This document shows positions 14,921-63,980 of a stretch of 64,000 bases of DNA, in pieces. Below the pieces are notes generated by a model. The model was not told the origin of the DNA. It was given only the letters and a program-made list of their open reading frames with translations, and did not search any database. The stretch comes from a virus. The stretch is from the IMG/VR virus record IMGVR_UViG_3300045988_128358; one strand, given 5' to 3'. Position 1 is the stretch's first letter; each line of letters opens with the position of its first letter. Position numbers and translations under genes: made by a program.

Positions 14921-16258
14921 ACCGAGTTCGATTCTCTCTTCATTAAGATAACGGAAAAAAGGTAAGTCCCACTCGATTGGATCCAACTGAGTAATTCCCA
15001 TAAGATAATGATTAAGTGCGGCACAACTGGAACCACGACCAGCACCTACCATTGAACCGCAATCCCAAATCATATCAATATAATGCTGAAGTGTATTTGG
15101 ATAACGAAACATATTTGTTTCAAGTTTTTCACTAATGATACTTTTAACTCGTGCCTCTTCCTCAAGCTCATCAAGATAACGTCTATCATTAATTTTTTCA
15201 AGTTTTTCAAGCTGATTTAAACATTCATTTACCCAATAACGATTCTGAATATCATCATCCATTAACATTGCAGATAAATGTGGATACTGCCTAAATCCTC
15301 TTACTTTTGGATAATCTTTAACTTCTACAGATGGAATATCCTGCTTATGAAAAAGACTATAATATTCAATTTTATTCTGTAAATCTAAGGTGTTTTCAAA
15401 AATTACATCTACATATCCATCTGGAAAACATGGAGATAATAATTCTTCTACTTCATCACTATCCATAAGTCTGGCAAATTCATAAAAGTCATCAACTTCA
15501 CGCTCTCCGCCTTTTGAATTAAGATATGCTTTATGAACCATTCTATCTTCTTTTGTTAAATAATGAGAGTCAGTTCCAACAACCATTTTAACATTATATG
15601 CAGTTGCAATTTTAAACAACTGAGAATTTACAGTCATTTGGTCTTCTTTATTAGATGGAGCACATTCAATATAAAAATCATCTCCAAATAAATCAAGTAC
15701 AAAATCCATAAACTCTTGAATTTTTTGCTGAAATTCCATCGCCATTTTTTGGTCATTTACTTTTAAAGCTTCTGCATATAATAAAGACCATGAAGATAAT
15801 TCTCCACCAATACATGCACTTGTTGCAATTAAATGACCTTTATAATGTTTTACAATCTCAGTTAATTCATCTTTTAAAGTTGGAACTCTTTCCATACCTC
15901 TATCCATATATGAATAATACCAAGCTGTAGAACTTAATTCTCTTAATGCTTTATGACCAATTGCATCTTTAGCAATCAAAATAAAGTGATAATATTTCTG
16001 ACCATGATTTCTTGTATCAGTTAAATAAATCTCATTTCCTAACCCAATCACAAAATTAGGATTTGTTTCTCTTAACTCTGTCGCAATTTTATTTATTTCA
16101 ACGTGCGCACAAAGGGCTTCATGGTCAGTTATACAGATACCACTAAGTCCTAATTCGATTGCTTTATTAATTAAATCTTTTGGGTGATTGGTTGAATCCA
16201 AAAGACGTAAGTTTGAATACTCTGTATGGTTATGACAATTAAACCACTTTTTGCTCAT
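14921..16258 (-). CDS. DNA polymerase III alpha-like, exon 1 (PHP domain)
   Basis: PHP motif CHNHTEYSNLRLLDS and GAGRGSSCAALNHYLMGITQLDP (DnaE [23 protein letters not shown]) are present. Confidence 0.8.
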
Positions 16259-28804: not shown

Positions 28805-29797
28805 TTATTTAATACTATAACCAAATTCTTTTGCCTTAAAAAAATCTTGCCAATAATCTTCTCTATCATTTAATTGAGATTTTGTACATTCTTCAATAAT
28901 TTCAAATGAAAAATTTTCAACTCCAACAGTCTGCATAATAGGATAAAGTTTATTGCGGGTCGGAGTATCTGCGCCCAATCCACGCTTAATATGCTGTTTC
29001 CAACGTTCAGCAATATTCGTACTCTGTCCGACATAACACATATTATTTTGTAAATTTGTGATTTTATAAATGCCGCAATGAACGCCAGAACCAATTACTC
29101 TACCAATTAAATCAGTATATGGCTTTTCATAATATGTTTTCCATATAACCTTATTAACAGGCTCAGGATTTCTAAAATGAGAAATAATTTTTCTTAATTC
29201 ACAAATTTCATCTAAATCATCTTGAGTTAAATTTAATTTATAAAAATTAGTTTTATTCTTATTCTCTTCATTGCGTTTATCATATGCAACTGCGGCCTCT
29301 ACCTTATGCCGCAAATCCTCTAACTGAGATTCTTCAAATTGAATTTTTTCATTTAATTTCTTTATCTTTTGGACACTTTCTTGTTCTTTATCCAAATAAT
29401 CCTGTACCAAATCTTTGGCTAATTCTTCATAGCTATCTTCTAAGCTATGTTTAGTGTCCATAAAAATAGCATGAATTTCTTCTGTATCAGTATGAAATTT
29501 TTGTTTATAAAAATCAAGCATTTGTTGATAATATTTTTTCGCACTTTCTTCTGAAGTCTTATATTCTTTATCAACATCTTGTTTTAATTGTTTATATTCT
29601 TGCAATTTTTGTTCATATTGTTCTTTTAAGTAATCCGTTCTTTGCTCCATTGCTTGTAACTCAAATTGAACGGCTTTATTCTTTTCAAGAATTTCTTTAT
29701 CTTCCTCTTGAGTAACTTTGACTTTTGGTTGCATAAACAGATATACTAACCCAGCCCCCAATATAAGACAAAAAATTGCTATAATTGCAGTAATCAT
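28805..29797 (-). CDS. membrane-anchored coiled-coil protein with C-terminal GIY-YIG nuclease domain
   Basis: N-terminal TM helix ITAIIAIFCLILGAGLVYLF, then a long E/K/Q-rich coiled coil. C-terminal GIYKITNLQNNMCYVGQS...R...E...N GIY-YIG. Confidence 0.7.
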   Translation of the reverse strand: MITAIIAIFCLILGAGLVYLFMQPKVKVTQEEDKEILEKNKAVQFELQAMEQRTDYLKEQYEQKLQEYKQLKQDVDKEYKTSEESAKKYYQQMLDFYKQKFHTDTEEIHAIFMDTKHSLEDSYEELAKDLVQDYLDKEQESVQKIKKLNEKIQFEESQLEDLRHKVEAAVAYDKRNEENKNKTNFYKLNLTQDDLDEICELRKIISHFRNPEPVNKVIWKTYYEKPYTDLIGRVIGSGVHCGIYKITNLQNNMCYVGQSTNIAERWKQHIKRGLGADTPTRNKLYPIMQTVGVENFSFEIIEECTKSQLNDREDYWQDFFKAKEFGYSIK

Positions 29798-42661: not shown

Positions 42662-43909
42662 TTATAATCTTTCTGCAATTTTAGCAATTTTAGAACGATG
42701 AATCATTTTTAATTCAATTTCACCATATATATCTTCGCCTCGATAGACTTTTGATACCCGTCTCATACCATTATTATTTCCAGCAAATGCGATGTCATCA
42801 ACTTGTGCTTTTTCATCTCCATCTATAATACATATACTATCTTCACCAATTCTTTGTAAAGCAAGTTTCATAAGTGTAATATCAAGATTTTGAGCTTCTG
42901 AAATATATATCCCAGCATTCATTCCAGTAGTGTCATAACCTCTAATATCAGAAAATGGAAGTAAAACAATTTGTTCTTCATCCATTAATCTTTCTAATTC
43001 GATTCTACTTCCTATTTTACTTGCAAGGACATTTCCGATTTGTGAATCTAAAAGTTTTTCATCTTTAGTACCTGGTAAATATCCTAATTTAGCAGAATTT
43101 TTTGTAGCAACTGTATTACAGAAAATAATAATTTTATCAATCTTGCCACGTTCTAATTGACTCATTAAATATCCAAGAGATAGATATGTTTTACCTGAGC
43201 CCGCAGGTCCTTTTACCAGAGTTATCTTATTATTTGTAAAACTATCTGCGACAAGTGTTTGATAAATATCTCCTTTAAGAGGTTTAACTTCACCAAACCA
43301 TTTAGAATTAAAACTTCTAAACTGAGTATGGCGATATTCAGAACCTGTCCATACGGCTGAATCAACGATTTGTCCATCTTTATTTTTTACAATAATATAT
43401 TCGTTTACTTTTAAGTCATAAGTATTTTCAGTAGGATTAGAATAAAAATTAGACATCATTTCATCATCCATTATAATTTCTTTATATCCGCTGTAATCAT
43501 CTTTTGGAGGGTACATAGATATAATACATTGCACTGGTAAAAATGCGGCAGCAGTAACTTTTAAAGTTAAATCATTCGTTACAAAGAAAAAGTCTTCTCT
43601 CTCACTTATTTTTAAATTATTAAAATAAGAATATGCAGTTGCTAAGATTTTGATATCATTATTTATTTCAAATCCTTTTTCAGTAAAAGGATAAGTAAAA
43701 AATGTTTTATACAATACAACTTCATATTTTGCGGGATTTGCATTTAAAAAAGATAAGATTTTTCTTGCGATATATTTAACTTCAGAATCTTTAGAAGTTG
43801 ATGTTTTAATCTTTTCAAGTTCCGCTAATGTAATAGAAGATATGATGAACTTCTCTTCTGGCATAGCTTCAAAGTTGTCCAATAATGCACATGTGTCATA
43901 AAATTTCAT
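42662..43909 (-). CDS. phoH: PhoH-like ATPase with N-terminal PIN domain
   Basis: N-terminal PIN domain. Walker A GPAGSGKTYLSLG. The conserved PhoH C-terminal region is present. Confidence 0.8.
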   Translation of the reverse strand: MKFYDTCALLDNFEAMPEEKFIISSITLAELEKIKTSTSKDSEVKYIARKILSFLNANPAKYEVVLYKTFFTYPFTEKGFEINNDIKILATAYSYFNNLKISEREDFFFVTNDLTLKVTAAAFLPVQCIISMYPPKDDYSGYKEIIMDDEMMSNFYSNPTENTYDLKVNEYIIVKNKDGQIVDSAVWTGSEYRHTQFRSFNSKWFGEVKPLKGDIYQTLVADSFTNNKITLVKGPAGSGKTYLSLGYLMSQLERGKIDKIIIFCNTVATKNSAKLGYLPGTKDEKLLDSQIGNVLASKIGSRIELERLMDEEQIVLLPFSDIRGYDTTGMNAGIYISEAQNLDITLMKLALQRIGEDSICIIDGDEKAQVDDIAFAGNNNGMRRVSKVYRGEDIYGEIELKMIHRSKIAKIAERL

Positions 43910-46860: not shown

Positions 46861-47130
46861 TCAACAATGATACTCATATTTCACTAGCCAATATTCTTTG
46901 CCATCTTCTTTATAAAGAACAGCATGGTCATCATATGACGTTGTTACCAAACTTTTAAGTTTTTGAACAGCTTCATTTTTATTTCTATAAACTGCATTTT
47001 TATGAAAAGTTAAATTTCCATGATACCCACTTGATTCTTGCGGGTCATAAGCAAAACTGTTTAAATCTCGTAAAATTTGGGATTCTTTTATAGAGCTGTC
47101 ATAGCTCTTATACCCAATTAAATGGCTCAT
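46861..47130 (-). CDS. hypothetical protein
   Basis: 89-aa ORF. Confidence 0.4.
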   Translation of the reverse strand: MSHLIGYKSYDSSIKESQILRDLNSFAYDPQESSGYHGNLTFHKNAVYRNKNEAVQKLKSLVTTSYDDHAVLYKEDGKEYWLVKYEYHC

Positions 47131-47678
47131 AGCATATCTTTACACTCCTCATATTTATTTTTTATATCTTCAATAACTGTATCAAGTGAAACTGGATAAC
47201 AGTTATGAGAATCAATTCCTACATGATACATGAAAAAGTTATCTTCATAAAAATTATCTTTTTGATGTGTATGACCAAATAAATTTAAGGTCATATGATG
47301 CAATCCTGAATCATCAACATTACCAGTTAATGTTGGATAATGACTCATATAGAAATTATATTTCCTATATTTTAAAACTGTCGAATATCCAAGACATTCA
47401 AGACCATTTTCTTTATAAAGATTAACTCTTGTATTTGTATCATGGTTTCCAATAATAAAATACTTTTTACCATTCAGCCGTTTTAAACATTCAAGTCCGT
47501 GTTCATTATCTTTCAGCATTAAATCGCCTAAGATATACACTTCATCTTCTGGCTGCACCAGCTCATTCCATCTTCTAATAATTTCTTCATCATGGTCAAC
47601 AATATTCGGAAAACCTCTTGGTTCGTAGATAAAACCTTTATCATGACGAAAATGAAGGTCTGAAGTAACATAAATCAT
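47127..47678 (-). CDS. calcineurin-like metallophosphoesterase
   Basis: Phosphoesterase motifs DLHF.H, GDLM, GNHD. The stop overlaps the upstream kinase gene. Confidence 0.75.
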   Translation of the reverse strand: MIYVTSDLHFRHDKGFIYEPRGFPNIVDHDEEIIRRWNELVQPEDEVYILGDLMLKDNEHGLECLKRLNGKKYFIIGNHDTNTRVNLYKENGLECLGYSTVLKYRKYNFYMSHYPTLTGNVDDSGLHHMTLNLFGHTHQKDNFYEDNFFMYHVGIDSHNCYPVSLDTVIEDIKNKYEECKDML

Positions 47679-48193
47679 TCTACATACTCCTTATCAGCAT
47701 CTCCTACAATCAAAATATGTTTGTAGGTATATTTTTCATTGTAAGTTGGTTTATCAAAAGTATAAAACATTCTTCTGATTGTTCCTCTTGGAACATATGC
47801 ACGTCCCATTCCTTTTCGATTCTCATTCTGAGCAAGAATCTGAGCAAGTGGTAAATTAAATACAACTGGAATAATATCTACTCCATCCAAATCAAGTCTA
47901 TCAAGAACTCGATTTCTCGCTTTCTCACTCAGATGAGTTGCGTCTGCGAAAACTGCAATATCATCAGTTGCTTCATTTAAAGCATTTTTAATTCTATTAC
48001 AGAACTCATCAAAGACATCATCTTCATATTTGAAGATGTTTTTATCATCTTCGTTTAAAAACTCAGCTCTTACTTCATCTCTTGACACATGTACACACTT
48101 GTAAGTTGTTGCCTGTGCCATTTCCTTCTTGACGTAAGTCGTCTTCCCTGATCCCGCAGGACCGCACATAAGAAAGAGAATCTTGTGCTTCAT
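47675..48193 (-). CDS. P-loop polynucleotide-kinase-like kinase
   Basis: ILFLMCGPAGSGKTTYV is an AAA_33/PNK-type Walker A. Start set at MKHKILF. The full ORF runs to 48259. Confidence 0.6.
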   Translation of the reverse strand: MKHKILFLMCGPAGSGKTTYVKKEMAQATTYKCVHVSRDEVRAEFLNEDDKNIFKYEDDVFDEFCNRIKNALNEATDDIAVFADATHLSEKARNRVLDRLDLDGVDIIPVVFNLPLAQILAQNENRKGMGRAYVPRGTIRRMFYTFDKPTYNEKYTYKHILIVGDADKEYVE

Positions 48194-48425
48194 CTTTATA
48201 CACCCCATTTTCAAAATTTTCTTTAAACTCAAGAACATCTTCATATGATTTACATTCAATATGATTTACTTCTTGTTTGCAGAATACACAGTACATTTTC
48301 TTTCTATGAAATCTACCATGCTGATAACTATTACGACGTGGTAAACTCATATTCTTATGACCGCAATTCATACAATAAAAATCATTGATTATCATTTTTC
48401 CATTTCTTCGTCCCATTAGTATCAA
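48075..48425 (-). CDS. zinc-ribbon protein (extent uncertain; overlaps kinase ORF)
   Basis: CMNCGH...CVFCKQ. It is preceded by the promoter at 48454..48482 and overlaps the kinase frame for about 118 nt. Confidence 0.35.
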   Translation of the reverse strand: MILMGRRNGKMIINDFYCMNCGHKNMSLPRRNSYQHGRFHRKKMYCVFCKQEVNHIECKSYEDVLEFKENFENGVYKDEAQDSLSYVRSCGIREDDLRQEGNGTGNNLQVCTCVKR

Positions 48426-48801: not shown

Positions 48802-49980
48802 TTATCTCCTTTGTGTAATTCCAAAAGGACTATCACTATAATAGTCTCCTTCAATTTGCGGAGCATACTCATTACAATGAGTAATAATTATCTTTTTAGA
48901 AAATCTTGTATCAAGTTTGACTTTTTCAAAATCATTGTCGATTCGAGTAATTACATCACTCTTTTTCATTACACCATATCTTAATCCGCCCTGGAAATCA
49001 TTGTGTACATTTGTTTTATCAAACATCTCTGTATTGATTTCTTTTTTCTGAGCTTCCTGTTCAATAGGACCAATTCCATGTCTAGTCACATATGAACGTG
49101 TTACATAACAAGCATCAACTGAAATATCTTTTTTATCTGCTAAAATCTCAAAAGGATATGTTACTCCTGTGCGGGAGGTTGTATGCCAGATATCATCATA
49201 ATAAAAATCAAGTCCTAATCCTTGACCATTCTCAAAGATAAAACTATCAAACTTATTATAAAGACTATCAAAAGTGATAATTTCATTTCTCTCAAGGAAA
49301 AATAATATATCACTTCTAAAATTACAAATTAAAGATTGTCTACCAATAGAATGTTTATCAAAATATTCTCTATAAGTAGTAATTTTATCAAGCTGCACTC
49401 CACGTTTAAAAAGGATTACAAGGCAATCTCTCCAAATTTCTTCCATATGAAAAAGATACTCTTCTTCGGTCCAGCTTGCAAAATCAGCAATCGTAAAATG
49501 AGTTTTCATCGTAGGGTCGCCATATCTGTCCTCAATAGCACACCAAGAGCCAAAACCGCAAGAACCATATTCTCTTTCGCCATTCTGTTCGGCAATCCAA
49601 TTTTCTGTAACATGGTCAATCATCATATCAAAAGGAGTAATTACTTTTGCTTCTGGATCAACATATCCTTTTAAATTCAAAGGAAATAAATGCTGTTCTA
49701 ATAACTCATAATATTCCTTTGTATAAGTCATAGGGTGAACAAAGAAAGTTTTCGCAAAAAAAGTTGGGACTCCTTTTGCGGTTCCGCTTCCAAAATGATG
49801 ATATACATGCCGCAATTTTGCTGTATAATCAACTGTATGACCACGCTGAGCCGTTCCGTTATGAAAGATTACTACTGGTTTTAAGCCTCGGTTAAGAGCG
49901 TCCTCACAGAAATGATTTGTTACAAGACCTTTTCCTTCATCTCCAAAATTTGCTCCAATAACAATTTTACTTTCTTTCAT
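48802..49980 (-). CDS. adenylosuccinate synthetase homolog (PurA/PurZ-like)
   Basis: N-terminal VIGANFGDEGKGLVTNHF (PurA has GxQWGDEGKGKIVD) and HNGTAQRGHTV (PurA has GGHNAGHT). 392 aa, shorter than bacterial PurA, and the P-loop is GDEGKGL rather than GDEGKGK. Confidence 0.7.
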   Translation of the reverse strand: MKESKIVIGANFGDEGKGLVTNHFCEDALNRGLKPVVIFHNGTAQRGHTVDYTAKLRHVYHHFGSGTAKGVPTFFAKTFFVHPMTYTKEYYELLEQHLFPLNLKGYVDPEAKVITPFDMMIDHVTENWIAEQNGEREYGSCGFGSWCAIEDRYGDPTMKTHFTIADFASWTEEEYLFHMEEIWRDCLVILFKRGVQLDKITTYREYFDKHSIGRQSLICNFRSDILFFLERNEIITFDSLYNKFDSFIFENGQGLGLDFYYDDIWHTTSRTGVTYPFEILADKKDISVDACYVTRSYVTRHGIGPIEQEAQKKEINTEMFDKTNVHNDFQGGLRYGVMKKSDVITRIDNDFEKVKLDTRFSKKIIITHCNEYAPQIEGDYYSDSPFGITQRR

Positions 49981-52426: not shown

Positions 52427-53167
52427 TTAATCCTCATAACCGCTATTTGCGTCAAACAATACATTTTGTTCCCAAGTATCCAAATCAATTAATGGTAAGC
52501 TTCCTGTAAAGAAACATCCACCATCAATATCAATTTTATGAGCTTTTCCCGCAGAATCTTTACAATAGAAATATGCTCCAGGAGAAGCTTTCTTTCCACT
52601 CATTTCACACATATATTCATAACAATAATGGCTTAAAAGAGGAACAGGAGTATGTCCATGAATCATAACTACATTATCCATTCCACCTTCTTCATCCCAT
52701 TCATCATCAAAATGTTCTCTATTCCAAATGAAATCATCTTCAAACTCTGGAAATCCTAAGTGCGGTCCAGGCGTAAAACCTGAATGAGATAAGATTACAA
52801 CTTCTCCATTTTTATTATCATAGCGATACCATTTAGGAAGATTGTCGATAATATCAATGTATTTTTCATCGCTTCCATCTGCCTCCCATTCTTCAACAGT
52901 AGATTGACCACCGTTAAAAGAGTGAAGTCTTGTGCAATGTTTTGCTCGCATAGAATCCGCAAACATCTGTTCGTGATTGCCGCAGATTAAAAAGAAATGT
53001 TTAGAATCTTCAAGAACTTCTTTTAAAATTTTAAATCCTTCTGGACCTCTATCTACACAATCACCTAAAACATAACAAAAACTATTGTCTGCATATACAA
53101 TATTTTTTACCATTTCCCATAAACCATACTGACCATGAAGGTCAGAACAACAATATACATGACTCAT
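52427..53167 (-). CDS. PPP-family Ser/Thr protein phosphatase (lambda-phosphatase-like)
   Basis: PPP phosphoesterase motifs DLHG, GDCVDRG, GNHE, HGHT. Confidence 0.75.
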   Translation of the reverse strand: MSHVYCCSDLHGQYGLWEMVKNIVYADNSFCYVLGDCVDRGPEGFKILKEVLEDSKHFFLICGNHEQMFADSMRAKHCTRLHSFNGGQSTVEEWEADGSDEKYIDIIDNLPKWYRYDNKNGEVVILSHSGFTPGPHLGFPEFEDDFIWNREHFDDEWDEEGGMDNVVMIHGHTPVPLLSHYCYEYMCEMSGKKASPGAYFYCKDSAGKAHKIDIDGGCFFTGSLPLIDLDTWEQNVLFDANSGYED

Positions 53168-54164: not shown

Positions 54165-54626
54165 CTACTGGTTCAAAAGTTCAGTAAGAACTTTATTGAT
54201 AAGTTTTCCATCTGCTTTGCCTTTAAGTTTAGGCATAATATTTTTCATAACCATGCCCTTCATTTTTGGTCCAATAGGCTCAGTAACGACCTGAGTAAGC
54301 TCAATTAACTCTTCATTAATAAAAGCTCGAATTTCATCTTCTGTCATAAGGGTTGGAGCAAATTCTTTAATTACTTCAAGTCGATATTTATAAGACTCTA
54401 AAAGGTCTGTTCTTGCGGCAGGGCAAGTATCAATCATCTCCTGCATAGTCTTTTGCTCTTTTAAGATAACTGCATCAACCATATCTTCTGGAATGTTATT
54501 TCGACAATTTTTATCAATAGCCGCCTTTTTAATGGCGTCAACAAGACTGGAAATAACATCTTTTCGAGCCTTATCTTTAGCCTTCATTGCGGTAACCATC
54601 TCTTTCATAACCATATCAAGTGTCAT
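54165..54626 (-). CDS. GatB/YqeY-domain protein
   Basis: N-terminal MTLDMVMKEMVTAMKAKDKARKDVISSLVDAIKKAAIDK matches the YqeY helical pattern. Confidence 0.5.
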   Translation of the reverse strand: MTLDMVMKEMVTAMKAKDKARKDVISSLVDAIKKAAIDKNCRNNIPEDMVDAVILKEQKTMQEMIDTCPAARTDLLESYKYRLEVIKEFAPTLMTEDEIRAFINEELIELTQVVTEPIGPKMKGMVMKNIMPKLKGKADGKLINKVLTELLNQ

Positions 54627-55374: not shown

Positions 55375-55608
55375 TTATCTCCTTGTCTTAAACCAATCTC
55401 TAATACGACTAACAAACATAATACCATTCAAAATTGTACAAACTGTCCAACATACACAACATATAATTGCACAAACAAGTTGGGTTGTTGTTGTTGCCAT
55501 TGTAATTACAATCCCATATAACGCTGCAAGGACTAAATTTAATGTAGTTAAAAATCCATATAATGCAATCATTTTTTTATACCTTTCTTTTTTACTCCAT
55601 TTCCACAT
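55375..55608 (-). CDS. hypothetical membrane protein
   Basis: Two hydrophobic helices. Confidence 0.35.
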   Translation of the reverse strand: MWKWSKKERYKKMIALYGFLTTLNLVLAALYGIVITMATTTTQLVCAIICCVCWTVCTILNGIMFVSRIRDWFKTRR

Positions 55609-56798
55609 TAAGAGTGAAAACGGAGTAAAAATTCATTAGATACTGCTTTAAAAGATTTAATACCATCCTGAGACCTGAATACAAGACCTTCTCTCATGCC
55701 ACCATCAAGCACAGACTCTCCAGTAGCAATGTCAAGTAATTCATCAACAGTATCAGGTAGAACAAATTCTTTATCTACAATAGGAACCCATGGAATACCA
55801 AACTCAGCCATTGCTTTTTCAGCCATTACAGAGTTCCAACGACCTTCCGCAGATGTGATAAAGTTAAAGCCCATAAAGCAATGCTCTTTTGTAGAGTAAT
55901 CTCTCTTCTGGATACCATCTCCATAAGTCTCGCCCTGTAAAGTTACCCACTCCAAATCTGGACGGTTCATCAGAATCTGTTTTAAAGTTTTCTCAATCTG
56001 ATATTTCTCTGCCATTTCAGTGTAAACATTGGTGTCATAAAAGCAAGCTTTATCAGGCTTATCAAAAACTACGTTACGAGAACATACATAAAAATCAAAC
56101 TTTTCTTTCTTCAAGAAACGAGTTTTTCTACGAATCATAGTGAAAGTAGTAGAAGTACCATCAATTTTTTCAGTGGCAACCCAATGAGATTTGTCCTCAA
56201 GAATCCATGGCATATTCTGAACTCGCTCTTCATCAGTCTTAGAAACCCAAGCCGGCCAGGTTGCCTTCTTATCGCCTTTCTTACCAAAAAATACGAAAAG
56301 TAATTTTTTGCCCCAGGTTCTTCTCATTAACCATCTGAATGGCTGGTGCGCAAATAGCTTACCATTTCTCTGTGCCATTCTCTTATATTTGTCCACAGAA
56401 GGAGCTTTTCTGATATTATCTTCCTCAACAGAATAAGTTACTTCAAGCTCTTTGGTCAAAAAATCTCCAAGTTTGTGAGCATCTTTATCCCATCCAAAAT
56501 CTTCAAAACCCATTAAAAGTCCCTGAGAAATTACAGTACCCTTGAAGTATTTCTGAGTTTTAATTTTAAAATGCTTTCCTTCAAGGAACATAAATGGTTC
56601 TTTTGCCGGTACTTTAGAGTCAATCTCAAAGTAAACCGCTAAATCACCTGGCTTAAACTGGTCTTTACGAACCATGATATGCCAACCATTTACGACAGCT
56701 ATTTCTACTCTGTCAGCTCCTTCGATAGGACGAATCTCATCAACTTTAACAACATAAGCAAGCTCTCTTTCTTTCTTCTCATTCAGCATACCTATCAT
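55608..56798 (-). CDS. RNA ligase (Rnl-type nucleotidyltransferase with N-terminal OB-like domain)
   Basis: KxDG motif ATEKIDGTSTTF. N-terminal beta-barrel-like VVKVDEIRPIEGADRVEIAVVNG...GDLAVYF resembles the Rnl5/NgrRnl-type OB domain. Confidence 0.65.
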   Translation of the reverse strand: MIGMLNEKKERELAYVVKVDEIRPIEGADRVEIAVVNGWHIMVRKDQFKPGDLAVYFEIDSKVPAKEPFMFLEGKHFKIKTQKYFKGTVISQGLLMGFEDFGWDKDAHKLGDFLTKELEVTYSVEEDNIRKAPSVDKYKRMAQRNGKLFAHQPFRWLMRRTWGKKLLFVFFGKKGDKKATWPAWVSKTDEERVQNMPWILEDKSHWVATEKIDGTSTTFTMIRRKTRFLKKEKFDFYVCSRNVVFDKPDKACFYDTNVYTEMAEKYQIEKTLKQILMNRPDLEWVTLQGETYGDGIQKRDYSTKEHCFMGFNFITSAEGRWNSVMAEKAMAEFGIPWVPIVDKEFVLPDTVDELLDIATGESVLDGGMREGLVFRSQDGIKSFKAVSNEFLLRFHS

Positions 56799-56821: not shown

Positions 56822-56850
56822 ATTATATAAAAATTTTAAAAATAAATCAA
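56822..56850 (-). promoter_or_regulatory. sigma70-like promoter TTGATT-N17-TATAAT
   Basis: -35 at 56845..56850 and -10 at 56822..56827. Confidence 0.55.
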
Positions 56851-57422
56851 TTAAGATTTGTTTCTTTCAAACAATCGTGGTAAATTTTAATAAGGTTTTT
56901 CTTATTTAGAAATGCCTTATTTCCAATACCATTTTGCTCTCTCCACGCTAAACGATATAATACTTTATCTATAAACATTTTAGTCGCAGGGTGCATGGCA
57001 ATAGGATTTTTGGTTTTATTCTGCCACCATTTATATTCTCCTTGATATGTAAAAGTATCTCCCATATAAGCGTGTCCCGCACCTAAATAATCACAGAGCA
57101 GCTCTAAAAGATATTTGTCTGGCATTGGTAGCGCAGTGCCGCCTTTATCGAGGTTGTCAAACCAGTACTCGTAATGATGTCGATTCCGACCTTTATGATG
57201 CTGCCAAGCTAAAGACATCCCGTTCTCCTCTTTACAAGCATCTATTGGAGAACGAGTCCCCTGCCAATATTTGACACCTTCCCAAAATTCAACGGGAGAA
57301 AATTTGGATAAGTCATGTGTAATTCCCTGCTTATAAAGACCAACTTTAAAACAGTATTTTCCTACCCAATATTTATGTTTGCATACAGTTTTTAAATGTC
57401 CAAAAAAGTTTTTAATTTTCAT
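56847..57422 (-). CDS. hypothetical protein (His-rich conserved block HHKGRNRHHYEYW)
   Basis: 191-aa ORF. Confidence 0.45.
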   Translation of the reverse strand: MKIKNFFGHLKTVCKHKYWVGKYCFKVGLYKQGITHDLSKFSPVEFWEGVKYWQGTRSPIDACKEENGMSLAWQHHKGRNRHHYEYWFDNLDKGGTALPMPDKYLLELLCDYLGAGHAYMGDTFTYQGEYKWWQNKTKNPIAMHPATKMFIDKVLYRLAWREQNGIGNKAFLNKKNLIKIYHDCLKETNLN

Positions 57423-57425
57423 ATT

Positions 57426-57812
57426 TTATTCCTCTAAATATTTATACTCTATTTTATGTAAAGAATCATCTTTTTTATAGTAAATATAGGTGCATTTTAC
57501 CTGTATTTCATCTCCTTCCTTAATAGTATTAAATATAGAAGAAGAAACTGTTACTTTTTCATTATTTACGCCATATAAATAATATGAATGAGTTGTAACA
57601 GGAATAAGAACCTTCCCACTCATTACCACAGAATGATGCACATCATCCTCTTTATTTATAACTTCAACTGTTCTTACTTCAGTTTTTAAATAAAATTGGT
57701 CATAATACTTCCTTATCCCAGCTACAATCCCAATACAAGCTGCGACAATAAGCACTACAATTACAATGTGCTTCATAATTTCTTTTAGTCTTTGTTTTTT
57801 CCAATATTCCAT
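57426..57812 (-). CDS. hypothetical membrane-anchored protein
   Basis: N-terminal TM IVIVVLIVAACIGIVAGI. Confidence 0.4.
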   Translation of the reverse strand: MEYWKKQRLKEIMKHIVIVVLIVAACIGIVAGIRKYYDQFYLKTEVRTVEVINKEDDVHHSVVMSGKVLIPVTTHSYYLYGVNNEKVTVSSSIFNTIKEGDEIQVKCTYIYYKKDDSLHKIEYKYLEE

Positions 57813-58141
57813 TATTCAACTCTCCAACCAGCTTTTTCACAAACTTTTTTCATATTCTGAACTCCAACAGGATTCATACTATGAAATTTAAAAGTTGCAT
57901 AAATCTTCCATTTCCGCAATCTTTGACATGCTTCAAGCCAATCAAGAATCTTGATATAATCTCCACCATTCTGATAATAATCTCCCGCATCATGGTCAAG
58001 ATTAATTTCATCTACTTCAAGAATACTTCCTTCTGGTCTCACCCGAGTAGTAAGATAAGTTTTTGCTTCCCAAACACTTTTAAGCCAAATATAAGAATCA
58101 TCTGGGGCCGGCCGCATATCATCAATCCAAAACTTAATCAT
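57812..58141 (-). CDS. hypothetical protein with DDxR...LDHD motifs
   Basis: WIDDMRPAP and INLDHDAGDYY form a conserved phage small-protein pattern. Confidence 0.45.
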   Translation of the reverse strand: MIKFWIDDMRPAPDDSYIWLKSVWEAKTYLTTRVRPEGSILEVDEINLDHDAGDYYQNGGDYIKILDWLEACQRLRKWKIYATFKFHSMNPVGVQNMKKVCEKAGWRVE

Positions 58142-58969
58142 TTATTTCACCTCAAACTTCCAATAATAAAAGTTATACTGTTTCTTTGTATTATAAGACT
58201 TTTTAATCCTCTTGGCAACATTTTTTACATTTACAGTCGGGTTATTTTTCATACTCTTATCATATGATTTAATAAACTCAACTGCTTCTTTAAGATTTTC
58301 AAACTTTTTAGTTTTTTCCTCTTCAAAGTTTTTTGTAGAACAACAAAAGACATCAAAACGAGTATCTTCATATTCAATCTGATCGGTTGTAATTTCTTTA
58401 TATTCCATAAAGACGTTTGCATCTACCTCTGAAGCTTTTTCATTTTTACAGCCTTCATAAACCTCTTTTAACATCTTCGCATCATCAAGAGAATTATGGG
58501 ACTGAACAATTTCCTCGCCTCTGAAATATTCGCAGACTTTGGCGAGATTAATTAATTTAATCAAACCAAAATGAACCTTAACAGCAGGAGCAAAATCTTT
58601 CATATCTGTATTCATATAGCCAAGAATTGCTTTTGCTTTAAAGTTATTTGTTTTGCGGAAGGTTGCTTTAATAAAATCTGTATCACAATTCCCATAGCAA
58701 TAAAACTCAGGAATATCATCGCCGCAATCCTCAAAACAAAAATCAAAAAACTTATTGAATACTTCTTCTGGAGAGGGAGCGTCCGCAACCATTTCTGTAG
58801 TAATACCTGTTAAGTCGGTAATAAACTTAGAAACATTCTTCTTTGTATTTTCTGGCGTATGTACAAGAGAATAAAACTCTTTACCATCTTCTCTTACACA
58901 TCCAACAGAAATAATATAATTGGAAAACTGCATTGCTTCAAAGTCAATAAAATATTTCATATATATCAA
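58142..58969 (-). CDS. DEDDh 3'-5' exonuclease (DnaQ/epsilon-like)
   Basis: Exo I FIDFEAM and Exo III HNSLDDAKML, with a C-terminal extension. Confidence 0.7.
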   Translation of the reverse strand: MIYMKYFIDFEAMQFSNYIISVGCVREDGKEFYSLVHTPENTKKNVSKFITDLTGITTEMVADAPSPEEVFNKFFDFCFEDCGDDIPEFYCYGNCDTDFIKATFRKTNNFKAKAILGYMNTDMKDFAPAVKVHFGLIKLINLAKVCEYFRGEEIVQSHNSLDDAKMLKEVYEGCKNEKASEVDANVFMEYKEITTDQIEYEDTRFDVFCCSTKNFEEEKTKKFENLKEAVEFIKSYDKSMKNNPTVNVKNVAKRIKKSYNTKKQYNFYYWKFEVK

Positions 58970-58977: not shown

Positions 58978-59160
58978 TTAGTCAAGTTTTACTTTTTTGG
59001 TATAAAGTTTCTTTTCAACGATACTTCCACAATCTGGACATCTAAAGTAAGAGAAAATAGAATTTCGACATTCATCTTGTGATGCAATAAATACACAACG
59101 ACATTTTGGACATTTTAACCGATAACCATATTTTTCACCAGGTTTAAGAATTTTAATCAT
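58978..59160 (-). CDS. small zinc-ribbon protein
   Basis: CPKCRC...CPDCG. Confidence 0.4.
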   Translation of the reverse strand: MIKILKPGEKYGYRLKCPKCRCVFIASQDECRNSIFSYFRCPDCGSIVEKKLYTKKVKLD

Positions 59161-59236: not shown

Positions 59237-60049
59237 TTATTCAGTTTTTCCTTTATCAAAATTAGGAGATTTTCTGAAATAAGTTGAAGATAAATAATTT
59301 GGGTCGTTCCATCTATTCCATACCTCCTCTAAATCTTCGATTGCTTTAAAATATTGTTCAACGTGCGGGCGTTCAAATCTATCTGCATGGAAGTGACCAA
59401 AAAGCCAAACGTTCCAATTAATTTTATCTTTAAAAGAATCAAGCCAAACTTCCATAGAATCATCTACGGTAGACTGGTCAATCATAGATAAAAATAAATC
59501 AGTCGGTTCCCAACTTAATGGACAAGTATGAGTAAAAACAAAATCAAAGCTTTGTCCCGCATACATTGCCTCAATAGCTTGCATTTCGGCTTCTGTAAGT
59601 TGTTCATTTGGATACCAAGTAAAATGATTTTCAAGTCTATACCATTTATCTACAGAATAAGCTCCACCTATAACCAATGTATTATGACCAAGAAAATCAT
59701 AATTAGAGCCGTCCATGAGATAATGGATATGAGGATAACCGGGTTCAATGAAAACATAATTCGCAACATCATCATCCCAGACTTCTTTAATACCTTCAAC
59801 ATCTTCTGGACGAGCTTCATGATTCCCCCTTACTAAATAAAAAGTACATCCATAATTTTCAAGTTGCATCTTGATATCATGCCGCCTTGCCTTACTTTTA
59901 TAAAAATTTACGCCTGCATCTCCCAAGATAATAATACCAGTCTCTTTTGGATTTTTTATTTCAAGCCATTCAAAACGGTCCATGCAGCCATGAGTATCTC
60001 CTGTTATGAAAAATTGTTTAATCATTTCTTTCCTCCAATTCAAAAGCAA
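59237..60049 (-). CDS. calcineurin-like metallophosphoesterase
   Basis: Phosphoesterase motifs GDTHG, GDAG, GNHE, GHFH. Confidence 0.7.
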   Translation of the reverse strand: MLLNWRKEMIKQFFITGDTHGCMDRFEWLEIKNPKETGIIILGDAGVNFYKSKARRHDIKMQLENYGCTFYLVRGNHEARPEDVEGIKEVWDDDVANYVFIEPGYPHIHYLMDGSNYDFLGHNTLVIGGAYSVDKWYRLENHFTWYPNEQLTEAEMQAIEAMYAGQSFDFVFTHTCPLSWEPTDLFLSMIDQSTVDDSMEVWLDSFKDKINWNVWLFGHFHADRFERPHVEQYFKAIEDLEEVWNRWNDPNYLSSTYFRKSPNFDKGKTE

Positions 60050-60842
60050 TACTTTTCTTTATAATTTCTGCTTGGACTTCTTGAAGAAGATTTTCAGCTT
60101 CTTCATTGGTATGATTAAATTCAGAATCTTTTGTATATGGAATACAAATTTCATTAATGTGAGCCATATGTTCATCTGCGACTTTAATAGCTTCTTCTCT
60201 TGAATAAAGACCAGTTTTAATATCTTTTAAATATTGCGGATTAGCTGGACAAAGACATTCTTTATACGGGGCCCCTGCGATATATTTATCGAGATATTCA
60301 TCAATTCTCACAAGCTGATAAAGCTGTTTGGGGTCATAATCGAATTTTTCAAAAGCTTCTTTATGTGTTTCGGTTTCTTTGGTAAGAGCATATCTTTTTC
60401 CAAGAGCAATACCAGACATAGCCTTTACTGCAAAGTAAGGGTTATAATGTGCGATAATCTCATTTGCCGCAATTAATTTATTCCATTCTTTTGCATACAT
60501 TGGATTAATGATTTTATAATCCGTAAAAAGAATTTCAATAAAATTTAGATTTTGTTTGCGGAAAGTGTCAAACATAAGTCTAATATCTTTAAAATCAATA
60601 TGTTCTTTATTAGCTCTAACATGAGTTGTTGACATAGGTTTACGATTATAAATGAACTCATTTAAAGTCGGAGTGGTAATAAGTTTTGTATCAATGTCAG
60701 AATCCTCAGTTTCAAGACCATAATTCTGACTACCTTGAAGAAAAATACCAACAATATTATTTTCAGCAAAATATTGTTTGGATTCAAGATAGTGTTCTTG
60801 AATACCACTTGCTGTTTTAATCACTTTATTAAGATTTGCCAT
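60018..60842 (-). CDS. Pol-beta-superfamily nucleotidyltransferase
   Basis: GSQNYGLETEDSDID follows the GS...D.D nucleotidyltransferase signature. Confidence 0.55.
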   Translation of the reverse strand: MANLNKVIKTASGIQEHYLESKQYFAENNIVGIFLQGSQNYGLETEDSDIDTKLITTPTLNEFIYNRKPMSTTHVRANKEHIDFKDIRLMFDTFRKQNLNFIEILFTDYKIINPMYAKEWNKLIAANEIIAHYNPYFAVKAMSGIALGKRYALTKETETHKEAFEKFDYDPKQLYQLVRIDEYLDKYIAGAPYKECLCPANPQYLKDIKTGLYSREEAIKVADEHMAHINEICIPYTKDSEFNHTNEEAENLLQEVQAEIIKKSIAFELEERND

Positions 60843-60903: not shown

Positions 60904-60933
60904 AAAAGGGAGAAAGTATTTAAACTTTCTCCC

Positions 60934-61290
60934 TTAATCATCGGTTGCCCATTGTCCCCTTTTAACCAGTCTTATAAGTTCATAATCATGCTGGGTCGGC
61001 TCAACATAAAACTTATATTTTGCAGAAGCATATTCTGGAATATCAAAATGATGATTTGCATTCCATACATAATCTAAACAATCAATAACAGCTTGTTGTT
61101 TATCTTTGTCAGTTCCTTCTGTATTTGCAGAAATATAAGCTAAGACTTCTTCTTCTTCACTTCCCCAGTCATAAGATGGAAAAATTTGCATTTTTTCAGC
61201 AGGTTTAGGACGAAAAGAAAAACTTAAAGATGTAAATAATACACATAAAAGAATAATTAAAAACATTTTTTCTTTCCAACTAAAATTCAT
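60934..61290 (-). CDS. hypothetical secreted/membrane protein
   Basis: N-terminal signal-like segment MFLIILLCVLFTSLSFS. Confidence 0.45.
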   Translation of the reverse strand: MNFSWKEKMFLIILLCVLFTSLSFSFRPKPAEKMQIFPSYDWGSEEEEVLAYISANTEGTDKDKQQAVIDCLDYVWNANHHFDIPEYASAKYKFYVEPTQHDYELIRLVKRGQWATDD

Positions 61291-61304: not shown

Positions 61305-61733
61305 TTATAAGAAATAATGTAATACAGGAATATATTTATCCCGCAATTTTTCAGTAAGCGTATCAGTTAAAGTCATATGGTCTTTCATATCTGCCTGCTT
61401 AACGATGAAAGCATAATCATCTTTTGCGTCAAGAATTTTATGAATATAATCTTCATAATTTTCTTGTGCATTTTTAGTTAAAAGAACTACTGAATTATAG
61501 CTTTCTATGCCTAAAATAGACATTAAATCTTCTTTTGGACATTCAGTATCTTCTAATAAATCGTGTGCCAATGCAATCATATAAGCTTCTGTTATATCCA
61601 TCCTTAAAAGTTCAGCTTTTGCGGTCGCATATTCAGCAACCCGCAAAGCATGAGCTAATTTTTTCTTAGGATAATATTGAACTGCCAAATTAAATAATTT
61701 ATTCACTTTTGTAATATCATAATTACAACCCAT
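61305..61733 (-). CDS. HD-domain phosphohydrolase
   Basis: The H...HD motif is HALRVA...AHDLLED. 142 aa. Confidence 0.6.
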   Translation of the reverse strand: MGCNYDITKVNKLFNLAVQYYPKKKLAHALRVAEYATAKAELLRMDITEAYMIALAHDLLEDTECPKEDLMSILGIESYNSVVLLTKNAQENYEDYIHKILDAKDDYAFIVKQADMKDHMTLTDTLTEKLRDKYIPVLHYFL

Positions 61734-61903
61734 TAACGTCCCTCCTCACAAAGACCTAAAGAAATTTCTCCTGTATATCCACAATAATACATAGAAAGTC
61801 GTTTAGAACCTTTTTTAGAAAAATAATACCAAGTATCCTGTTCCCAACCATTAGTATCCCAGTCATCATCTCTATCATAACCAAGTTTATCAAAAACATC
61901 CAT
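61733..61903 (-). CDS. small hypothetical ORF (56 aa)
   Basis: MDVFDKLGYDRDDDWDTNGWEQDTWYYFSKKGSKRLSMYYCGYTGEISLGLCEEGR. Its stop overlaps the HD start (taATGg). Confidence 0.25.
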   Translation of the reverse strand: MDVFDKLGYDRDDDWDTNGWEQDTWYYFSKKGSKRLSMYYCGYTGEISLGLCEEGR

Positions 61904-61906: not shown

Positions 61907-62041
61907 CTAACATGGACCAAGATTTAAAAGGCTAAGTTCAATATTTGTAGCATTACCGACTTCAAGCTCATGAATCACTCCTCTTATAAAAGGCATTACT
62001 CTATCAATTTCTTCCTTAGAAATACTATACCCTCTTACCAT
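61907..62041 (-). CDS. small hypothetical ORF (44 aa) ending at in-frame TAG
   Basis: MVRGYSISKEEIDRVMPFIRGVIHELEVGNATNIELSLLNLGPC, then TAG. The next ATG is 3 nt downstream in the same frame. Confidence 0.25.
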   Translation of the reverse strand: MVRGYSISKEEIDRVMPFIRGVIHELEVGNATNIELSLLNLGPC

Positions 62042-62911
62042 TTATTCTTCTCCTATATAAATTAAATCATCAACGTATTTACGGTCTTCACCTTTTAAAA
62101 TAGGCATGTTTCTATCAATAGCCCAAATAGGTCTTTCTTCAATAATTGTAGTTGTAACTTTATCTTCTCCAAAAGGCTGAGGTTCTCTTTTTATATTTTC
62201 AGTTACTTTTGTTGCGACTTTAATACATGCTGTACCTCGTTTACATGGTACTGTAAAATTATTCCAATTAATGCCATACTTGGTCATTAGCATATCTTGA
62301 ATCATATCACAAGTTTTATTTTGAAGTTCATCATGTGAGAAATTAGCCTGTCCAACCATCTGAATACTATTTCTGGTTGCATCAAGCTGTCGCCAATAAA
62401 TAAGGTTAGTTACTTCTTCTTTTGGAATATTAAAACATCTGGCATCAAAACATGCCCCTCTTTCTACTGCACTTATATAATTATCAAGTAAACCTTCTCT
62501 TCTTTTTACAAGAGGGTCATTAGTTAAATTATATTCAACTACATTTTCAGAAAAATATTTATTAAAAGCCATTGTTGCCATAGAAGCTGATACAGAAGTT
62601 AATTTTTGAACTTCATAATCAAACCAAGCATCTGAAGTGAATTTTTGATAATCTACTAAAATCAGAGTAATTTCATCTGACTGGGTATATCCAAAAACGC
62701 AGCCTTGAATATTTTCACATAAATATTTCATTGTTTTTTGCATTGCATCCATTAGCACAAAGTCAAATGGTTTTTGAAAACCCCTTGTAAAAGTATGAAA
62801 TGCCTTGCCGTCCAGCCTAATTGCTACTGGAGTTCTTCTCATAAGTCGAGTCTTTGGAATATTTTCATAAAAGACTTTCATACGAGTGCCTAAATCATCT
62901 CTTATCGGCAT
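62042..62911 (-). CDS. Thg1-like protein (tRNA-His guanylyltransferase family, 3'-5' nucleotidyltransferase)
   Basis: VAIRLDGKAFHTFTRGFQKPFDFVLMDAM...GYTQSDEITLIL...SASMATMAF...IYWRQLDATRN parallels Thg1 VVRLDGRNFHRF..KPND..L.LM...GQSDEYSFVF...ASQFAS...SWRQADCHIN. Start set at MPIRDD. Confidence 0.75.
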   Translation of the reverse strand: MPIRDDLGTRMKVFYENIPKTRLMRRTPVAIRLDGKAFHTFTRGFQKPFDFVLMDAMQKTMKYLCENIQGCVFGYTQSDEITLILVDYQKFTSDAWFDYEVQKLTSVSASMATMAFNKYFSENVVEYNLTNDPLVKRREGLLDNYISAVERGACFDARCFNIPKEEVTNLIYWRQLDATRNSIQMVGQANFSHDELQNKTCDMIQDMLMTKYGINWNNFTVPCKRGTACIKVATKVTENIKREPQPFGEDKVTTTIIEERPIWAIDRNMPILKGEDRKYVDDLIYIGEE

Positions 62912-62959
62912 TTTATTTATTCCTTTCTTTCTATTTTTTTTAGAGTTTTTATACATTTA

Positions 62960-63169
62960 TTATAATTTTGGACACCAGCCTGGAATGTCAGTATATCTTC
63001 TTAAATGCCAATCATCTCCTGCAACCAATTTGTCATGTCCTTTTACATCTTTAACGAGTTTACAATAACATCCTTCCTCATGGTCCCAAGAGTCTGGGGT
63101 ATAAATAGGACGAACATCATGGTCTGGACAATCAAGACAATTTGTGACTGTAATAGTAAAAGAATTCAT
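62960..63169 (-). CDS. hypothetical Cys-rich protein
   Basis: 69 aa, CLDCPDH...CYC. Confidence 0.4.
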   Translation of the reverse strand: MNSFTITVTNCLDCPDHDVRPIYTPDSWDHEEGCYCKLVKDVKGHDKLVAGDDWHLRRYTDIPGWCPKL

Positions 63170-63170: not shown

Positions 63171-63980
63171 TTAACTCTCCTCTAACAATTCATCAAACTT
63201 TTCTTGAAATTTACTGTAATTGGTAGAATCATCATTAATAATAGGAATTGCGAAAATCACTTTTTTAAATTCAGTTGCATAATCTGTAACCAATAGATTG
63301 ATAAAAATTTCTGCAACATCATTTGCGTCCTGTCCAAATACTCCGCATCCAAAAGCTCCTAAAATAAGAGTATCAACCTGATTCTGTTTTGCTACTTCAA
63401 AAACAAATCGAATTCTTGATTCAAGAACTTTTTTATTTTCATCTCTATCTACGTTGCAGTACCTTGCAGCGGCAGTAAAATTAGGTGCGGCGCAAGTAAT
63501 TACATCGCAATATTTTTCAATACCAGAATGCTCAAATCTGATATTTGGAGAATAAATTGCTCTATTCTCATAAAGAGCACGATTTTTATGTCCTTCATTC
63601 CAATCATAATAGTTTGGAACTTGACTTAATACATTATAAAGAAAAGATTCATGGCACAAACACTCTTCCTGGGCACGTGAACCTCTTATAAACATTCCGC
63701 CAGGGTTTTTATATGAAGCAAAATTAAGAACCGCAACTTTTCCATCTGTAGAATCACAAGCTACAATAGCTTCAACACTTCCAACAGCATCAAGAGCAAT
63801 ATCTGCTTCTCCTAATTTTCTTGCGGGCGTTGTCGCAGTAAAATTTTTACTATAAATTTTACTATTTATTACACTTTCCGCAATCTCACTGGCAAACTGT
63901 TCATTCATTTGCTGAGTATGCTCTTGTGCAATAGTTGCTCTTTGAGCTTTATCTGCCCAATAATAGCTAATATCTTTCAT
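63171..63980 (-). CDS. macro/PARG-like protein (TIGR02452-type family)
   Basis: VLNFASYKNPGGMFIRGSRAQEECLC and LILGAFGCGVFGQD fit the macro-like ADP-ribose-processing fold pattern. Confidence 0.5.
   Translation of the reverse strand: MKDISYYWADKAQRATIAQEHTQQMNEQFASEIAESVINSKIYSKNFTATTPARKLGEADIALDAVGSVEAIVACDSTDGKVAVLNFASYKNPGGMFIRGSRAQEECLCHESFLYNVLSQVPNYYDWNEGHKNRALYENRAIYSPNIRFEHSGIEKYCDVITCAAPNFTAAARYCNVDRDENKKVLESRIRFVFEVAKQNQVDTLILGAFGCGVFGQDANDVAEIFINLLVTDYATEFKKVIFAIPIINDDSTNYSKFQEKFDELLEES

Follow-up and report, generated by a model that had tools for sequence, protein, structure and literature searches.

The 64,000-nucleotide stretch of IMG/VR record IMGVR_UViG_3300045988_128358 that was analysed here (hereafter the window) carries close to its end, on the minus strand at 62042-62956, a gene of the Thg1 family of 3'-5' polymerases. 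Judged by its sequence, the gene product is a bona fide bacterial-type Thg1-like protein (TLP) and not Thg1 proper, and sequence and structure model together predict a catalytically competent template-dependent 3'-5' RNA polymerase. Combining these data with the tRNA genes and gene neighbourhoods of its relatives, we suggest, at somewhat better than even odds, that this TLP of a large gut phage maintains or repairs tRNA 5' ends during infection by templated 3'-5' polymerisation and that it does so with the enzymes encoded in the island around it. Repair of tRNA 5' ends is most likely the role, and it is the best-supported one. The data show directly the family, the conserved active site, the fold, the gene context and the tRNA array of relatives, and from these we infer the substrate, the cooperation with the neighbours and a counter-defence purpose. 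Phage TLPs and their role in RNA repair are already catalogued and proposed, and the locus adds a richer context to them.

The assignment to the Thg1 family had been made in a preliminary description from motifs read in the translation, and it is confirmed by profile and structure-database searches. The protein matches the Pfam family Thg1 (PF04446) with E=1e-29 and a score of 103.6 bits (gathering cut-off, 29.2), the match extending over profile positions 3-130 of 130; it matches PHROG 4717 ('tRNA-His guanylyltransferase') with E=2.7e-84 and, as the closest solved structure by sequence, PDB 4KGK, the TLP of Bacillus thuringiensis (BtTLP), with E=6.5e-54. The C-terminal family PF14413 scores 20.2 bits, which is under its cut-off of 26.3, and this region nonetheless aligns to BtTLP. 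All four hallmark blocks are present, i.e. RLDGKAFHTF (47-56), KPFD (62-65), GYTQSDE (89-95) and WRQLD (188-192); here and for the catalytic positions, residues are numbered in a 304-residue form of the protein. Archaeal TLP and the human, yeast and Candida Thg1 proteins match at only 1e-8 to 4e-6 (human Thg1, E=1.3e-8), and the protein thus groups with the bacterial TLPs, a placement that had been left to further analysis.

The homologue search was exhaustive (5,450 clusters at 50% identity with E<=1e-3), 82 diverse homologues were aligned, and residues were mapped by pairwise alignment to BtTLP together with the published residue roles for BtTLP and Thg1. The metal-binding carboxylates D30, D75 and E76 of BtTLP (D29, D76 and E77 in human Thg1) correspond to D49, D94 and E95, so that the acidic residues on which the initial claim had been made to depend are conserved; the catalytic stretch from D49 to D94-E95 lies at 62812-62672 on the minus strand. 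The residues of nucleotidyl transfer (BtTLP R28, K99 and R131; here R47, K118 and R173) and of activation (BtTLP K43, S74 and M158; here K62, S93 and M200) are identical, and the nine catalytic columns are at least 90% conserved across the 82 homologues. The position of the Asn of eukaryotic Thg1 (N161) is occupied by Met200, as it is by M158 in BtTLP, and ATRNSIQM replaces the eukaryotic HINNLYN block, so that the mark of eukaryotic Thg1 is missing. Because the protein is of the bacterial TLP type in both respects, templated rather than non-templated addition of G is predicted.

An AlphaFold2 monomer model (mean predicted local distance difference test score, pLDDT, 95; predicted template-modelling score, pTM, 0.90) recovers the palm-domain (RRM-like) polymerase fold plus fingers of the solved Thg1/TLP structures. 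In a Foldseek search of the PDB the top 32 matches are all Thg1/TLP chains (the next match has E=0.018), and BtTLP leads them with target-normalised template-modelling (TM) scores of 0.90-0.93. BtTLP (PDB 4KGK/4KGM) is 36-39% identical to the window TLP and has identical residues at the nine catalytic positions; the window TLP differs in being phage-encoded and not bacterial, in being ~45 residues longer and in carrying K and T in place of BtTLP R16 and D6. Eukaryotic Thg1 (human, 3OTB; yeast; Candida, 3WBZ) shares the fold and the two-metal active site at about 20% identity (human, Candida), and the TLP of Methanosarcina acetivorans (MaTLP, PDB 5AXK-5AXN) has the same fold at ~22% identity. 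MaTLP is an anticodon-independent tRNA 5'-repair enzyme in which a beta-hairpin grips the tRNA elbow and halts extension at position +1. At this site the model has a long beta-hairpin (strands 227-241 and 253-266, in this case numbered in the 289-residue form described below), the sequence of which is poorly conserved, as has been reported for this region among TLPs. The hairpin is roughly twice the length of that of MaTLP, and the geometry of the 'ruler' may therefore differ. Compared with BtTLP, a helical segment (38 versus ~15 residues) and the hairpin (36 versus ~17) are extended; since both lengths vary continuously among homologues (19-62 and 9-41 residues, respectively), they define nothing new, and the idea that they represent a clade-specific novelty was rejected.

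The interval 62042-62956 had been proposed as the gene, and its limits are indeed those of an exact ATG-to-stop open reading frame (ORF) of 304 amino acids, which lies on the minus strand, the same frame of the plus strand being riddled with stops. The start is the part that did not hold: the true start is probably the ATG at 62911, giving a coding sequence at 62042-62911 (minus strand) for 289 amino acids. We favour this start because AGGA lies 9-10 nt upstream of it, because the ATG at 62956, to which the longest ORF reaches, has no Shine-Dalgarno sequence and abuts the TAATAA of the preceding gene, and because metagenome gene calls on independent contigs use the 289-residue form. The exact 289-residue protein is recorded on 10 contigs, and among metagenome protein records none matched the exact 304-residue form.

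The phage location of the gene, which had been proposed as well, is supported by the content of the window and by its relatives. The window contains a typical phage replication module, with a DnaE/YorL-like polymerase (~41% identical to polymerases of Enterococcus and SPbeta-like phages), Dda-like and DnaB-like helicases, a primase, Sak4 and two topoisomerase II subunits, and further genes encode an NAD-dependent ligase, RecJ, NrdD and a GIY-YIG homing endonuclease; every ORF is on the minus strand and the GC content is about 31%. The last 10 kb are 100% identical to a human-associated metagenome contig in ENA and share 89-92% DNA identity with IMG/VR viral genomes of 188-196 kb, and a megablast search with 55-64 kb against GenBank phages returned no near-identical phage. 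Relatives of the TLP in cellular genomes (43-63% identity) come overwhelmingly from gut Clostridia assemblies, and isolates that carry them include Roseburia, Blautia, Dysosmobacter, Flavonifractor and Ruminococcus. The source is a large (about 195 kb) human-gut phage, probably with a member of the Clostridia or another Firmicute as its host.

A phage copy of Thg1 had been called unusual, which is overstated. There is a dedicated PHROG, a TLP homologue is encoded in 164 of 50,697 GenBank phage records (most best matches are already annotated as tRNA-His guanylyltransferase), close relatives of the clade of the window TLP alone are found on 376 IMG/VR contigs, and phage copies were published in 2010 and 2021. 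The hosts of the 164 phages include Bacillus (46), Prevotella (15), Caulobacter (13) and Mycobacterium (11), among others. Anantharaman, Iyer and Aravind (2010) noted a Thg1 in a phage and suggested that it acts in RNA repair together with polynucleotide kinase, macro and RNA ligase proteins, and Iyer et al. (2021) placed Thg1 among the RNA-repair enzymes of jumbo phages alongside RlaP, cREC and ligases; in the Thg1/TLP enzymology literature that we searched, phage or viral copies are not mentioned. Phage members of PHROG 4717 include Fusobacterium phage Fnu1 gp147 and proteins of the Bacillus phages G, Bc431v3, Eldridge and FADO and of Pseudomonas phage 201phi2-1. The TLPs of cultured phages are of the same family, are 39-44% identical to the window TLP and all reside in large phage genomes, and RNA repair is the role proposed in the literature for phage TLPs, as it is here for the window TLP. 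The closest match in a GenBank phage record is a 4.2-kb faecal fragment (55%), and there is no close cultured relative.

In the model that we favour, the TLP would start either from a 5'-monophosphate RNA end, which it activates with ATP or GTP, or from a 5'-triphosphate, and would extend a truncated tRNA acceptor stem at its 5' end by Watson-Crick-templated nucleotides, the substrates being host and/or phage tRNAs during infection. The macro hydrolase, HD protein, nucleotidyltransferase, phosphoesterases, exonuclease, cREC protein, ligase and kinase encoded in the window would clean and reseal RNA ends, and the whole would counter tRNA-disabling nucleases or toxins of the host. Repair of tRNA 5' ends by bacterial-type TLPs was shown in vitro in 2010, and BtTLP is far better at repairing 5'-truncated tRNAs than at extending full-length tRNA. 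Because of this preference, and because G-1 addition and editing appear unneeded in this lineage, repair or maintenance is the role most consistent with the data.

The latter point rests on the tRNA genes. There is no tRNA gene in the 64-kb window; walking upstream on the relatives of ~195 kb, we find at least 28 tRNA genes on the TLP strand in an array that ends ~5.6 kb upstream of the TLP (four relatives). The array is interspersed and lies within 1-21287 of locus L342 (IMGVR_UViG_3300045988_122850:16702-37988), and it is also found in L344-L346, L263 and L007. CCA is encoded in none of these tRNA genes. In four of four relatives examined, tRNA-His encodes G-1 opposite C73, the ordinary bacterial arrangement. 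Among the 27 tRNAs of L342 the sole 1:72 mismatch is in an initiator-like tRNA-Met and the acceptor stems are otherwise regular, except that a second tRNA-Met (70 nt) has mismatches at pairs 5 and 7, which may be a parsing artefact; near TLPs in other IMG/VR loci, acceptor-stem mismatches are found in 0 of 55 tRNAs. Given the encoded G-1:C73 and the regular acceptor stems, the TLP is not required for maturation of tRNA-His or for 5'-editing in this lineage.

These genes bear directly on a rival explanation that we consider rather unlikely, namely that the TLP is a tRNA-His identity enzyme that adds or restores G-1 on phage or host tRNA-His for charging. BtTLP is efficient in placing G-1 opposite C73 (kcat/KM about 5500 M-1 s-1), TLPs have a second, anticodon-dependent mode of binding tRNA-His, and the lineage encodes a tRNA-His with C73, all of which is compatible with such a function. 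However, addition is unneeded for maturation where G-1 is encoded, as it also is in the tRNA-His genes next to the TLP in L224 and L242; Met200 of the protein is of the TLP type and a HINNLYN block is lacking; and restoring a lost G-1 would itself count as repair. A sample of 71 phage tRNA-His genes that share one anticodon-stem sequence (viral loci L086-L165, with short flanks) speaks to both sides. In this sample, G-1:C73 is encoded by 49 genes, T at -1 with C73 by 15 and U-1:A73 by 3, with 18 of the 71 lacking an encoded G-1, and the related phages L013/L142 and L134 have a U-1:A73 tRNA-His 4-7 kb upstream of a TLP; on the other hand, a TLP is in the flank of only 2 of the 80 tRNA-His loci, L134 and L142 (the same contig as L013), both of the U-1:A73 class, and since these are related phages they represent one evolutionary event and not a statistic. 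Maturation of tRNA-His as the required role was downgraded on the basis of the G-1:C73 encoded in the lineage, as established by pattern scans and contig walks; for other phages, the U-1:A73 genes near a TLP keep the idea in play.

The variety of these tRNA genes deserves description of its own. For the 15 of 71 phage tRNA-His genes with T-1 and C73, G-1 would need post-transcriptional, C73-templated addition. A Pro-His-Gln-Cys tRNA cluster occurs in three related contigs (L013 5496-5645, equal to L142; L113 6704-6853; L134 11367-11516), in which tRNA-His lies 1-2 nt after tRNA-Pro and has U-1 paired with A73, a eukaryote-like discriminator; two of the three contigs have a TLP (58-64% identical) 4-7 kb downstream of the tRNA-His, directly after a YqeY gene, and a pattern scan of viral sequences for U-1:A73 tRNA-His returned the three known genes only. 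ARAGORN also assigns an 'anticodon' of only two bases (tg) to tRNA-like genes at L345 9539-9608, L265 237-306, L065 5164-5234 and L078 3809-3879. In L345 and L265 such a gene takes the place of the tRNA-Pro(tgg) of sister genomes, suggesting a tRNA-Pro whose anticodon loop has lost one base, either a pseudogene or an unusual decoder.

The second line of evidence for repair is the island of genes around the TLP. An HD hydrolase, a nucleotidyltransferase and a PARG-like gene had been named as neighbours, and all three are found by Pfam searches; the island contains more genes than these, all co-directional on the minus strand and separated by small gaps. The putative TLP transcription unit opens with a gene for a PARG-like macrodomain hydrolase (63171-63980; TIGR02452, E=4.4e-59; PF10021, E=2.2e-28; PGG-x8-QEE signature). 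It is followed by a Cys-rich ORF of 69 amino acids (62960-63169), which has no family match and is kept only in the closest relatives, by the TLP gene, and by two small ORFs that abut the TLP stop (61907-62041, 44 amino acids; 61733-61903, 56 amino acids). The HD protein (61305-61733; Pfam HD, E=7.6e-5; HDLLEDT motif) has as its best PDB match the (p)ppApp hydrolase 7SMG (E=3.3e-5), followed by SpoT (7QPS), and matches TIGR00691 (spoT_relA) weakly; since 7SMG and SpoT are its best solved relatives, it is no generic HD protein but one of the RelA/SpoT type that resembles the small alarmone hydrolases. This suggests a phage-encoded small alarmone hydrolase, which could possibly be directed against toxSAS or (p)ppApp-based host toxins. 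The last gene before a terminator-like hairpin is orf118 (60934-61290; 118 amino acids, hydrophobic N-terminus, no family match).

This hairpin (60906-60935, minus strand) has a 12-bp stem and a T-run and is followed by a promoter-like site at 60903-60875. Next come the Pol-beta superfamily nucleotidyltransferase (60018-60842; weak Polbeta, NTP_transf_2 and RlaP matches; PHROG 388) and a calcineurin-type metallophosphoesterase (59237-60049), and then a second terminator-like hairpin at 59259-59221. Beyond it lie a zinc-ribbon ORF of 60 amino acids (58978-59160), a DEDD (RNase T/DnaQ-like) 3'-5' exonuclease (58142-58969), a cyclic-phosphate-processing receiver (cREC) protein (57812-58141; PF20274, E=3.6e-14), a membrane-like ORF of 128 amino acids (57426-57812), a DUF5662 protein identified by Pfam (56847-57422) and an ATP-dependent RNA ligase (Rnl) of the DraRnl (Rnl5) type (55608-56798; PF21189 and PF09414; PHROG 968, E=7.8e-62). 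The ligase consists of an N-terminal OB module and an adenylyltransferase domain and matches TIGR02306 (RNA_lig_DRB0094) with E=6.1e-25, at 87.8 bits versus a cut-off of 151. Both hairpins are strong and a promoter-like site follows each, as judged by a consensus scan, which suggests three putative units: (i) the PARG-like gene to orf118, including the TLP, (ii) the nucleotidyltransferase and the phosphoesterase, and (iii) the exonuclease to the ligase. Farther away, a P-loop polynucleotide-kinase-like protein (47675-48259, minus strand; AAA_33) matches PSTK and the kinase domain of bacterial Pnkp weakly (for the latter E=1.8e-6, well under the cut-off), and its stop overlaps the start of a Metallophos_2 phosphoesterase (47127-47678, minus strand); the two may form a candidate Pnkp-like end-healing pair about 14 kb from the TLP. 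A third phosphoesterase (52427-53167, minus strand; PHROG 246, NinI-like) matches the RNA-ligase-associated PHROG 8238 in part, and three metallophosphoesterases are thus found within 13 kb (47127-47678, 52427-53167 and 59237-60049).

Linkage was followed in two sets, 80 IMG/VR loci (TLPs 59-95% identical, 10 kb flanks, tblastn) and 80 divergent copies from bacterial genomes and metagenome-assembled genomes (MAGs; 8 kb). Independent contigs of the same lineage have the identical island order, the complete island from the PARG-like gene through DUF5662/Rnl is present in the six closest IMG/VR loci (TLP identity at least 82%), and a partial island with the HD protein, orf118, nucleotidyltransferase, phosphoesterase, exonuclease, cREC and YqeY is present in L039 and L071, the TLPs of which are 64-65% identical. 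Among the divergent copies, 32 of 80 lie within 8 kb of one or more island homologues; Rnl (8 loci), the PARG-like protein (6), the nucleotidyltransferase (5), cREC (5) and polynucleotide kinase (3) recur in differing orders, and about one third of these loci have tRNA clusters near the TLP. Linkage of the TLP to PARG-like, Rnl, kinase, cREC and nucleotidyltransferase genes is thus shuffled but recurrent, e.g. in L207, L211 and L191. In L207, the PARG-like protein, HD protein, nucleotidyltransferase, phosphoesterase, Rnl, kinase and a second phosphoesterase all surround the TLP, and in L207 and L211 the kinase/phosphatase pair adjoins the TLP and Rnl within 5 kb of the TLP. Such recurrent, shuffled linkage is the pattern expected for functional association, and it agrees with the neighbourhoods of Thg1, kinase, macro and RNA ligase genes that were described in 2010.

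Several observations weigh against the tRNA-repair model. The tRNA array lies outside the window, just past position 64000, and its presence is deduced from relatives that share 89-92% DNA identity. Most of the 80 IMG/VR loci (TLPs 59-71% identical) have no island gene detectable by tblastn within 10 kb, and Fusobacterium phage Fnu1 has no annotated repair genes beside its TLP, so that the linkage is facultative. The terminator-like hairpins would place the TLP with the macro and HD genes and not with the ligase or the nucleotidyltransferase. A host system that truncates tRNA 5' ends has not been identified, and in the literature searched no phage TLP has been assayed and the bacterial TLPs themselves have no established role in vivo.

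Alternatively, the TLP could fill gaps in duplex RNA by extending a broken RNA 5' end on the complementary strand, with the DraRnl-type ligase sealing the nick and with rRNA, phage transcripts or structured small RNAs as substrates. We regard this as a minor possibility. TLPs including BtTLP extend simple RNA duplexes, a review mentions possible non-tRNA substrates of TLPs, the DraRnl family is described as nick-sealing ligases, and Rnl lies 1-3 kb from the TLP in L191, L200, L207, L211 and L221. Against this, the model of the window TLP appears to retain a hairpin of the tRNA-elbow type, tRNA arrays are the most consistent feature near TLPs, and the ligase of the window is apparently in a transcription unit separate from that of the TLP.

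A more specific version of tRNA repair, to which we give only a small chance, is that the PARG-like macro hydrolase, the TLP and the HD hydrolase form a dedicated 'tRNA acceptor-end rescue' module. In this scheme, the macro enzyme would free RNA ends of ADP-ribose, the HD enzyme would take off the 3'-pyrophosphate that defence toxins of the toxSAS/CapRel type place on tRNA CCA ends or would destroy the (p)ppApp that they make, and the TLP would restore 5' strands that had been nibbled; further downstream, the nucleotidyltransferase, phosphoesterase, exonuclease, cREC protein and nick-sealing ligase would complete the repair. KptA-type enzymes ADP-ribosylate 5'-phosphorylated RNA and are sometimes encoded in operons with Thg1, and toxins homologous to RelA/SpoT, including the anti-phage CapRel, pyrophosphorylate tRNA CCA ends. 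Taken together with the apparent shared unit, the three enzymes could therefore reverse three acceptor-end lesions. If so, a phage with ~28 tRNAs of its own would also bring a multi-lesion tRNA repair kit, and this would be the first defined in vivo role for a TLP in a bacterial system.

It is very improbable that the gene is not a functional phage gene but a degraded leftover, or that it belongs to a bacterium whose contig was misclassified. No capsid or terminase gene was found in the 64-kb window, and many relatives are binned with bacterial MAGs. Yet the ORF is intact, all catalytic residues are in place and the model has a pLDDT of 95; hundreds of variants that are 80-99% identical are every one full length; the window holds a typical phage replication module; and relatives are IMG/VR viral genomes of 190-200 kb. 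Least likely of all is 5'-editing of phage tRNAs with mismatched first acceptor pairs, as in amoebozoan mitochondria, which would fit the many tRNA genes of the lineage and the one repair-type role known for a TLP in vivo, in eukaryotic organelles, but which is effectively refuted by the regular acceptor stems described above.

The tRNA-repair model for the TLP and its island invites comparison with the heal-and-seal systems, i.e. T4 Pnkp and Rnl1, bacterial Pnkp-Hen1 and Pnkp1-Rnl-Hen1, and the RlaP/cREC systems described by the Aravind group. Their component classes are present in the window as a polynucleotide-kinase-like P-loop protein, several phosphoesterases, cREC, a Pol-beta nucleotidyltransferase and an ATP-dependent RNA ligase, the kinase match being weak and the ligase match below its cut-off; L207 and L211 have compact versions of the set. 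Unlike in these systems, a Hen1 methyltransferase is not seen in the window, the kinase is 14 kb off, and the ligase is of the DraRnl type and not Rnl1; the window adds to the set a TLP, a PARG-like macro hydrolase and an HD protein like the alarmone hydrolases. The window TLP is thus embedded in an unusually complete island for RNA end-processing, whereas that of Fnu1 is without such annotated neighbours. What bacterial-type TLPs do in the cell has been a standing question since 2010, and phage copies provide a genetically tractable setting that could reveal whether 3'-5' polymerisation serves as counter-defence. The gene itself will not surprise a specialist, and cultured phages with a TLP already exist for functional study; the locus is a well-resolved example, with an intact active site, an operon-like context and an adjacent tRNA array, which alone changes no known picture.

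Other genes of the window and of its relatives are of note in their own right. A divergent PurA-like gene lies at 48802-49980 (minus strand; PF00709, E=1.6e-18, partial match), and 23 of 80 related viral loci have a homologue (33-37% identical) at a distance of 2.3-7.8 kb upstream of their TLP. A PurZ/DatZ system for a 2-aminoadenine genome, with the HD protein as a DatZ-like dATPase, was considered and dropped: against the PDB the PurA-like protein has no PurZ match and only weak, generic PurA matches, and the HD protein is of the RelA/SpoT type. Outside the window, among the tRNA genes of the relative L007 and ~3.8-5.3 kb upstream of the TLP start, a 507-amino acid protein with DUF2828 and DUF7788 (vWA) domains is encoded at 4654-6177 next to an AAA ATPase (1455-2573); DUF2828 proteins probably resemble the Ro60/TROVE RNA-binding proteins. 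The DnaE/YorL-like polymerase of the window is split (11165-16258, minus strand) into an N-terminal part of 456 amino acids (14888-16258) and a part of 863 amino acids (11165-13756), with a 261-amino acid ORF between them (13893-14678), possibly a mobile insertion. The gene at 28805-29797 encodes a protein whose C-terminal domain is a GIY-YIG homing endonuclease, and that at 42662-43909 a fusion of PIN and PhoH, both on the minus strand. Finally, a YqeY/GatB-like protein is encoded at 54165-54626 (minus strand), and its gene also adjoins the TLP in several distant relatives (L013, L134).

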